Part shown: positions 21,539 to 21,908 of the stretch, in pieces | How positions within the stretch are numbered: position 1 is the first letter of the stretch | Layout: each line of letters opens with the position of its first letter | Origin: an uncultured Alphaproteobacteria bacterium | Lineage (GTDB): Bacteria > Pseudomonadota > Alphaproteobacteria > RF32 > CAG-239 | Length of the DNA: 64,000 nt | Assembly: GCA_944390885.1 (NCBI GenBank) | Contig: CALXRP010000008.1 | Span: 5,019-69,018, forward strand | Direction: 5' to 3' | Made by a program: the position numbers and the translations under genes | The notes under the pieces: model-generated | The model's input: the letters and a program-made list of their open reading frames with translations, nothing else | Database searches by the model: none | Told to the model about the DNA's origin: nothing

Positions 21539-21624
21539 TTTAATGGCCGGAGTTTTTAAACACCGCAAATAAAAATGGTGCCGATTGCGTGACTCGAACA
21601 CGCGACCCACGCATTACGAATGCG
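21539..21624 (-). repeat. Direct repeat duplicating the 3' half of tRNA-Thr plus ~35 bp of its downstream flank. It looks like an att-site scar.
   Basis: The ~85 bp at 21539-21624 are identical to 21797-21881. The identical stretch covers the last 49 nt of the tRNA, including CCA, and then diverges. Confidence 0.75.
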
Positions 21625-21832
21625 CTGAGGATAAAAAAGTTGACTTAACGTCAATTTTTTTTACCGCAAGAAGCTTTTTTGTTAATCAGCCGGAGCCGGG
21701 TAGGCAACGGCGGATGTTACAAGAAAGCTGACCGCAGCGAGTTAATGTTTAAAACATTTACGAGCCAGAGCTAGCAACGCAAAAACTTCGGCAATTTTAA
21801 TGGCCGGAGTTTTTAAACACCGCAAATAAAAA

Positions 21833-21908
21833 TGGTGCCGATTGCGTGACTCGAACACGCGACCCACGCATTACGAATGCGTTGCTCTACCAACTGAGCT
21901 AAATCGGC
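21833..21908 (-). tRNA. tRNA-Thr (anticodon CGU).
   Basis: Reverse complement: GCCGATT TA GCTC AGTTGGTA GAGC A ACGCA TTCGTAA TGCGT GGGTC GCGTG TTCGAGT CACGC AATCGGC A CCA. This forms a clean cloverleaf of 76 nt with an encoded CCA. Confidence 0.85.

Follow-up and report, generated by a model that had tools for sequence, protein, structure and literature searches.

An old partial copy of tRNA-Thr(CGU) upstream of a CatB-related gene in uncultured gut Alphaproteobacteria

Results

Genes and repeats at the tRNA-Thr locus

We analysed a 64,000-nucleotide stretch of DNA from an uncultured alphaproteobacterium, referred to as a whole as the window. The only tRNA that ARAGORN found in the whole window is tRNA-Thr(CGT), at 21833-21908 (minus strand). 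The gene is intact, encodes its CCA and scored 72.4 bits against the Rfam tRNA model; an Rfam search of both strands gave no match besides it. To its left lie a gene for a CatB-related hexapeptide O-acetyltransferase (20890-21507; catB below), in the same orientation as the tRNA (minus strand), a gene for a KAP-like P-loop NTPase (18908-20815, minus strand) and murD (17531-18901, plus strand), which is convergent with the KAP-like gene. The product of murD passed the NCBIfam equivalog cut-off, and the gene is the conserved anchor of the locus. It follows asd and an mscS-family channel gene, and no other Mur ligase gene was found among the neighbours tested. The neighbourhood also holds a lipoprotein gene, ftsB and genes for an M23 peptidase, a bactofilin and a class II aminoacyl-tRNA synthetase. 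The original prediction had stated that no integrase remains, and a Pfam search of the neighbouring genes tested agreed, with no integrase domain among them.

The 3' part of tRNA-Thr is present twice. A repeat search returned a direct repeat (family D1) of 89 nt with one mismatch (99% identity) at 21539-21627 and 21796-21884, with a spacing of 257 nt. This confirmed the original prediction of a direct repeat of ~85 bp that duplicates the 3' half of the tRNA together with its flank; the limits given there (21539-21624 and 21797-21881) are the perfect-match core of the 89-nt repeat. The repeat contains 52 nt of the tRNA 3' part (positions ~25-76) and 37 nt of 3' flank. By repeat search and direct reading, the flank in the proximal copy (21796-21884, minus strand) includes half of a terminator hairpin. 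In the tRNA part 49 nt are perfect, followed by a mismatch at tRNA position 26. The distal partial copy of tRNA-Thr (21576-21627, minus strand; the fragment below) consists of anticodon stem-loop, variable loop, T arm, acceptor 3' strand and CCA, and lies ~70 nt upstream of the catB start. Its identity with the gene begins at tRNA position 27, where the anticodon stem starts, and extends through CCA and the T-run. A 24-mer derived from the repeat occurred exactly twice in the 64 kb, against 0 expected from 100 shuffles.

The same repeat architecture recurs in independent assemblies (L001, L003, L004, L010, L015, L017, L018 and L023) and is therefore not an assembly artefact. Contigs begin, end or have N-gaps within the repeat in L001, L012-L014, L016, L017 and L042, because a true repeat at this place confuses the assembler; the repeat thus accounts for the recurrent contig breaks at the locus in gut metagenome assemblies.

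The fragment in related genomes

Relatives were collected by a MurD-based scan of species-representative genomes, and are metagenome-assembled genomes (MAGs) of uncultured gut Alphaproteobacteria; L041 is the scaffold of the window itself. From the nucleotide identities of murD and the right flank we obtained the tree ((window, L001), L002), ((L003, L004), (L005, L010)), with L006-L009 as a deep outgroup (MurD identity 55-58%). We found the same tRNA fragment and junction upstream of the CatB-related gene in at least seven related species-level genomes. Orthologous fragments with an identical upstream junction (...TTGACGTTAAGTCAACTTTTTTATCCTCAG|CGCAT...) are present in L001, L003, L004, L010, L015, L017, L018, L023 and the window. 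Since the junction TATCCTCAG|CGCAT is common to both clades, a single old origin follows. Between the two clades that share it, murD is only 77-79% identical at the nucleotide level, so the event is old and the age implied by the original prediction did not hold. The duplicated 3' half of tRNA-Thr is an old relic common to a group of gut Alphaproteobacteria; it was not left by a recent island that brought in catB and the KAP-like gene. A 35-mer across the junction had 0 matches in a scan of JGI metagenomes.

Copy number varies among the relatives. L003 has three copies of the tRNA part, in the order tRNA, unit, fragment, unit, fragment, catB, and its two 249-nt units differ only in the fragment. 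L002 has a single copy; the deletion (window 21049-21782) also took the 5' part of catB. L005 lacks the KAP-like gene, catB and the fragment, and its murD runs in frame into the spacer, a fusion with the C-terminus ...KELTAAS. As L005 is sister to L010, which has the full module, its state is a derived loss. We also considered an island integrated into murD, with the spacer as a relic of the murD 3' end, and rejected it, there being no significant similarity between the two in six genomes; without that similarity, the fusion in L005 is best read as a microhomology deletion. The two genomes that lack the fragment, L002 and L005, are unrelated deletions with different end points. A clean empty site, with the tRNA followed directly by the catB leader, was found in no relative of this clade, and tRNA fragments were sought without success in L006, L030, L039 and L040.

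One assembly has an unusual tRNA copy. At positions 1-37 of L015 the upstream copy has the acceptor 3' strand ACTCGTC in place of the usual AATCGGC and a different variable loop, whereas the downstream fragment is the usual one. It stands at the start of a low-coverage contig; strain variation, a different tRNA or a fault in the assembly could each account for it.

CatB-related gene and the KAP slot

The acetyltransferase shares the hexapeptide-repeat fold with type B chloramphenicol/streptogramin (XAT) acetyltransferases, and its best NCBIfam matches are CatB and Vat. It differs from them in falling far below the equivalog cut-offs and in being chromosomal, outside an integron or plasmid. As its score against CatB (NF000490) was 171 bits, where the cut-off is 350, it is CatB-related only and not a CatB equivalog. 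NCBI names its homologues 'CatB-related O-acetyltransferase'; such genes are widespread in Alphaproteobacteria MAGs, and at 72-78% identity they occur in many unrelated contexts. Among the relatives, CatB identities of 80-94% track the species tree.

In another Alphaproteobacteria MAG (L030/L031; L030 4829-5618), dnaN-recF-gyrB are followed by an intact tRNA-Thr(CGT), a terminator and a catB homologue (76% identical), with no fragment. Chance adjacency of catB to tRNA-Thr(CGT) there is very unlikely, at roughly 0.05% per context with 5 contexts examined. Since this adjacency occurs in a different chromosomal setting, the order tRNA-Thr 3' end then catB looks ancestral, with the fragment and catB as its remnant. 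Judged from these gene orders, catB is probably a native neighbour of the tRNA and not cargo.

The KAP-like product gave a weak match to KAP_NTPase (PF07693), below the gathering score (13.7 bits, where 20 is required; E = 0.037; confined to the N-terminal 30 residues). Its distant homologues carry PF07693, and it matched PADLOC PDC-S49 with E = 2.9e-10. On direct reading, the translation has a Walker A motif (GIWGIGKT), two hydrophobic stretches and then a Walker B motif (VICFDDFERL); a Walker A motif, inserted hydrophobic (transmembrane) segments and a Walker B motif make up what we take to be the layout of the KAP family. The gene identities in the original prediction were roughly right on both counts, the acetyltransferase being of the CatB/Vat group and the NTPase having this layout and these distant homologues.

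The KAP-like gene has a low GC content and is hypervariable among close relatives. It is a GC outlier (z = -2.4), whereas catB is normal in composition. Identity of the KAP-like protein does not track species. The window and L001 are 55% identical in it, compared with 96% in MurD and 94% in CatB, and L003 and L004 are 36% identical although their CatB proteins are 92% identical; for L003 the identities lie in the range 33-36%. In L023 an unrelated 176-aa gene occupies the slot, and catB is a pseudogene. Between the window and L001, nucleotide identity drops from ~0.96 to ~0.6 in a sharply bounded tract (~18870-21000) that extends from the last codons of murD into the 3' end of catB, as for an allele replacement. 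The KAP slot is hypervariable and defence-like, and its alleles are probably exchanged through homologous recombination, with murD and catB as the anchors. It resembles known hypervariable defence slots with conserved flanks (KAP NTPases; PADLOC candidate PDC-S49) in its low GC, in KAP identities of 33-59% against 80-96% for the neighbours and in the unrelated gene in one relative. It differs from them in being a single gene without partners, and a defence role is putative.

According to the original prediction, catB and the KAP-like gene are accessory cargo of an island that targeted tRNA-Thr and lost its integrase. The interval between murD and the tRNA is indeed variable, being empty in L005, with a truncated catB in L002 and with neither catB nor a KAP-like gene in L006, L008, L009 and L039; the low GC of the KAP-like gene and the many unrelated contexts of catB homologues point the same way. 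The absence from L005 is, however, a nested and derived deletion. Both genes lie beyond the distal fragment, and a search for a further att copy to the left of them found nothing above shuffled-query noise in 10000-21530 and none elsewhere in the window, so that catB and the KAP-like gene are outside any repeat-bounded interval. In addition, catB follows the species tree and the KAP-like gene changes through the tract anchored in murD and catB. What stands of the cargo claim is the variable interval and the atypical GC of one gene; as an account of how the two genes arrived it is largely contradicted, and we consider it highly improbable.

Window-lineage extension and concerted evolution

The window has a third, 20-nt copy of the tRNA end at 21521-21540 (last 11 nt of the tRNA and 9 nt of flank, one mismatch; repeat family D3), which abuts the distal repeat and was missed by the original prediction. 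It overlaps a 46-bp extension of the window lineage (21530-21575, minus strand), which is made up of the copied 37-nt tRNA 3' flank and this third copy of the tRNA end. Neither the 37-nt flank part nor the 20-nt copy is present in the closest relatives, L001 and L017, or in the other clade; they are confined to the window lineage. The junction specific to this extension was also found in L042, an independent assembly from a second sample. From this distribution, the 37-nt flank part of the repeat is a recent event of the window lineage only. Its junction (...CCATTAAA|TCGGCACTA...) looks like the result of copying from the fragment 37 nt into the flank of the functional gene, followed by rejoining at a microhomology.

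Local copying of this kind could also have produced the fragment itself, without an integrase. Template switching during replication, or a tandem duplication with a later deletion, would have placed a 59-nt copy of the tRNA 3' end in the catB leader, and unequal crossing-over would afterwards have amplified it. The 46-bp extension is such a patch-copy event with a microhomology junction, L003 shows tandem amplification, and no integrase is present. On this account, however, the first copying would have started without any homology, the position of the boundary at the anticodon stem would lack an explanation and the adjacency of tRNA-Thr and catB in L030/L031 would become a coincidence; TRF, moreover, detected no tandem array in the window. 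We consider this origin improbable. In terms of tandem duplication the window is A-B-A (1.35 units) and L003 is A-B-A-B-A, a pattern that fits unequal crossing-over on a pre-existing A-B-A.

We compared the fragments with the tRNA genes of both clades. The T arm of the tRNA differs between the clades (GCGTG/CACGC in one and GGGGG/CCCTT in the other). The 33-nt 3' part of each fragment is 0-2 nt away from the tRNA of its own clade and 7-9 nt away from that of the other. As the shared junction implies a single origin, the clade-matched T arms mean that the fragments have been repeatedly corrected against the functional gene. These substitution patterns indicate that the fragment is kept like the working tRNA by gene conversion, as in concerted evolution. 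The two ends of the fragment behave differently: in the clade of L003, L004, L010, L015 and L023 the anticodon arm has shared indels and is decaying, and in the clade of the window and L001 the fragment is a perfect copy from tRNA position 27. In 8/8 genomes the last 30 nt at the 3' end of the fragment are intact, while the anticodon arm decays.

A conserved spacer between the copies

The two copies are separated by 168 bp of non-coding DNA (21628-21795, spacer B). In a three-way alignment of the window, L004 and L010, blocks 21620-21689 and 21710-21789 reach an identity of 0.93-0.97, equal to that of the tRNA, compared with 0.70 for the whole 7.8-kb region. The original prediction had taken the ~170 bp as the residue of a deleted element; with such conservation and no decay, this was not borne out. 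On the evidence of the alignment, the spacer has been fixed and is under purifying selection, as expected of functional DNA. It probably serves catB as promoter or operator and provides a convergent transcript with its 3' end.

Several elements can be recognised in the spacer. A palindrome next to the fragment (AAAAAAATTGAC-GTTAA-GTCAACTTTTTT, 21628-21662, minus strand) is invariant in 7/7 aligned genomes and contains a promoter-like element (TTGACG, 15 nt, TATCCT) that ends 3 nt before the fragment and is a putative promoter. A simple scan for consensus promoters and terminators gave no matches in the region, the promoter-like element being missed because of its 15-nt spacing. It is followed by a long imperfect hairpin (21672-21729) with a conserved base and a variable GC-rich tip, and by a 7-1-7 palindrome (AATGTTT-N-AAACATT, 21744-21758) whose central base is A, C, G or T depending on the species and which looks like an operator. 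RNAalifold was run on both strands of the spacer, where the sequence is too conserved to reveal covariation.

These elements allow another reading, in which fragment and spacer form a working regulatory module. A tRNA-type promoter would drive a leader resembling the T arm and acceptor end of tRNA-Thr(CGU), and this leader would precede the CatB-related gene and the defence-like slot; selection would keep it in register with the real tRNA, and a conserved small RNA, transcribed towards the tRNA, would stop at the terminator that the two share. The intact 3' end of the fragment and the tRNA-level conservation of the spacer are not fully explained by gene conversion alone. We nonetheless hold such a module to be distinctly improbable as the account of the locus.

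A motif and terminator shared with deep relatives

The part of the spacer nearest the tRNA contains an invariant 22-nt motif (TACGAGCCAGAGCTAGCAACGC, 21759-21780, plus strand), followed by a hairpin with an A-run and a T-run (21781-21814), a bidirectional terminator behind the tRNA. The hairpin was missed by the simple terminator scan. It shows compensatory changes between lineages, at 7 pairs in four versions. The motif also occurs near tRNA-Thr loci in L006 and L038-L040. In L006, which lacks the fragment and has the tRNA turned round with respect to murD, a different hairpin is followed by the same motif; the alignment covers 27/29 nt with a score of 46, against a null of 18 +/- 2.6. In three contigs from the human gut (L038-L040), motif and hairpin lie 1.1 kb from tRNA-Thr, from which an AT-rich EamA gene separates them, and a convergent ORF has its stop 25 nt before them; these contigs were the sole matches of the 22-nt motif in a second scan of JGI metagenomes. 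Motif and hairpin were located at 21759-21814 (plus) in the window, 11452-11520 (minus) in L006 and 8722-8779 (minus) in L039, and were also found in L038 and L040. They are kept from the window clade to relatives with 55-58% MurD identity and have no Rfam match. By this distribution, terminator and motif are an ancient companion of tRNA-Thr(CGU). Motif, hairpin and T-run, read antisense to tRNA-Thr, are a candidate small-RNA 3' end or a conserved 3' UTR/terminator element. The conserved spacer, the 22-nt motif and the terminator are candidates for regulatory RNAs or operators of this uncultured gut lineage.

The 3' side of tRNA-Thr takes different genes in different lineages. In L039 an AT-rich gene for an EamA-family transporter (7640-8757) lies between tRNA-Thr and the usual terminator and motif, without a tRNA fragment. 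The tRNA adjoins murD in all relatives, its orientation is flipped between the window clade and the deeper ones (L006-L009, L039), and synteny past the tRNA is wholly different. Homologues of the L006 genes downstream of the tRNA were sought in the window and none was found, so synteny breaks at the tRNA.

The tRNA-proximal 75 nt of the interval between tRNA and fragment are homologous to the tRNA flank in L006 and L038-L040, which is not what Islander expects of a foreign interval. The original prediction had assigned the DNA beside the tRNA and catB to a foreign element; the former matches the flank in deep relatives, and the latter looks native by its arrangement in L030/L031.

Discussion

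The origin of the fragment can be explained in more than one way. Our preferred explanation is a crossover of the tyrosine-integrase type at the anticodon loop, which we hold as the most likely origin with a tentative probability of about 0.45. An older tRNA-Thr(CGU) gene, with the CatB-related gene as its native downstream neighbour, would have had its 3' part displaced, and this part would be the distal fragment (21576-21627). In the common ancestor of this genus-level clade, the crossover would have inserted DNA and regenerated the tRNA 257 bp upstream. The inserted DNA would have been the incoming 3' half and what is now the ~170-bp spacer, the rest of the element being gone. Gene conversion would since have kept the two tRNA copies alike and unequal crossing-over would have shifted the copy number between 1 and 3. 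In the window lineage, a conversion or template switch may recently have pushed the identity 37 nt into the flank, leaving the third, 20-nt copy. Both the origin and the direction of the ancestral event are inferred.

An argument for an integrase is the position at which the fragment starts. It is the 3' part of the tDNA, lies in direct orientation relative to the intact tRNA on the same replicon and begins at one of the crossover sublocations recognised by Islander, which are the anticodon loop, the T loop and the T/acceptor junction (PMC4383910). Anticodon-centred sites are the largest att class in that collection, with 2083 of 3919 islands (PMC4383910). A start at the anticodon stem, the commonest att sublocation, would otherwise be a coincidence of ~5% and therefore favours an integrase origin.

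Other observations speak against it. The classical model derives the DNA 3' of the intact tRNA from the element, yet here this DNA is homologous to the tRNA-Thr flank of deep relatives that have no fragment. With a host-like flank, the integrase model needs either an event older than those lineages with later loss of the distal copy, or an element whose own flank was host-like. The 257-bp interval has no ORF and thus no tyrosine integrase, and no integrase, excisionase or other element gene was found between tRNA and fragment in the window or in any relative. Searches of IMG/VR for an attP gave 0 matches with the tRNA 3' half of the window clade, with the stretch from T arm to CCA of both clades and with three spacer patterns. 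The lack of integrase, attP and a clean empty site in the clade weighs on the same side. Of the integration footprint described in the original prediction, the genuine, directly oriented 3' tDNA fragment starting at the anticodon stem stands, whereas the interval it bounds is host-like and conserved and has no matching attP in IMG/VR.

A close rival is that the fragment is what remains of a second tRNA-Thr(CGU) gene. Two copies would have stood 250 bp apart, one with the terminator and the 22-nt motif, the other with the TTGACG...TATCCT promoter and with catB, as in L030/L031; the copy linked to catB would have lost its first 26 nt and its leader, and conversion would keep the remainder alike. 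Such a history explains the native-looking flank of the intact tRNA and the step from tRNA-Thr to catB in L030/L031, the A-tract and the TTGACG promoter-like element just upstream of the fragment, the missing integrase and attP, and the concerted evolution. Two intact copies were found in none of the genomes examined, though, and a deletion ending exactly at the anticodon stem would be a matter of chance (~5%, for +/-2 nt). On direct reading the promoter-like element is also unlike the upstream region of the intact tRNA itself. We regard this second-gene history as possible, if somewhat unlikely. Under this history and under integrase crossover alike, the structure is ancient, fixed and maintained by conversion, and is not the vehicle of catB or of the KAP-like gene.

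The locus is of a known kind, a tDNA fragment scar with concerted evolution, here in an uncultured gut lineage, and as such is unsurprising. With tDNA islands and att scars of the Islander type, which have a regenerated tRNA and a displaced 3' fragment, it shares the direct repeat, the common orientation, the start at the anticodon stem, the CCA and the accessory genes nearby. It differs from them in that the interval is 257 bp long, without an integrase, conserved and constrained across species; its tRNA-proximal part is ancestral flank, the accessory genes are outside it and the two copies evolve in concert.

CIME-type elements (Streptococcus ICESt1/CIME) are non-autonomous, att-flanked remnants that undergo tandem accretion at tRNA sites. 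The small att-flanked segment without a recombination module, and the tandem array in L003, resemble such remnants. In contrast to them, there is no sign here of a cognate integrase in trans or of excised or empty forms, and the L003 array equally fits unequal homologous crossing-over. The concerted evolution by conversion is like that of duplicated tRNA and rRNA genes, in that clade-specific T-arm substitutions are found in both copies and a conversion tract reaches into the flank in one lineage. The difference is that one partner here is a 50-nt non-functional fragment and not a full gene.

Island-finding takes a tRNA with a displaced fragment as the mark of an island, while in this lineage the fragment persists and is homogenised across species. 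The accessory genes nearby are outside the repeat and turn over by homologous allele replacement, which calls for caution in att-based island calling. The same caution applies to reading resistance-like genes near tRNAs as mobile.

A further conserved stretch was noticed to the right of the tRNA. At 23000-23110 of the window, in the non-coding DNA just before the M23 peptidase gene and across its start, the three-way identity is 0.93-0.97 against an average of 0.70, and this stretch is a possible regulatory element.
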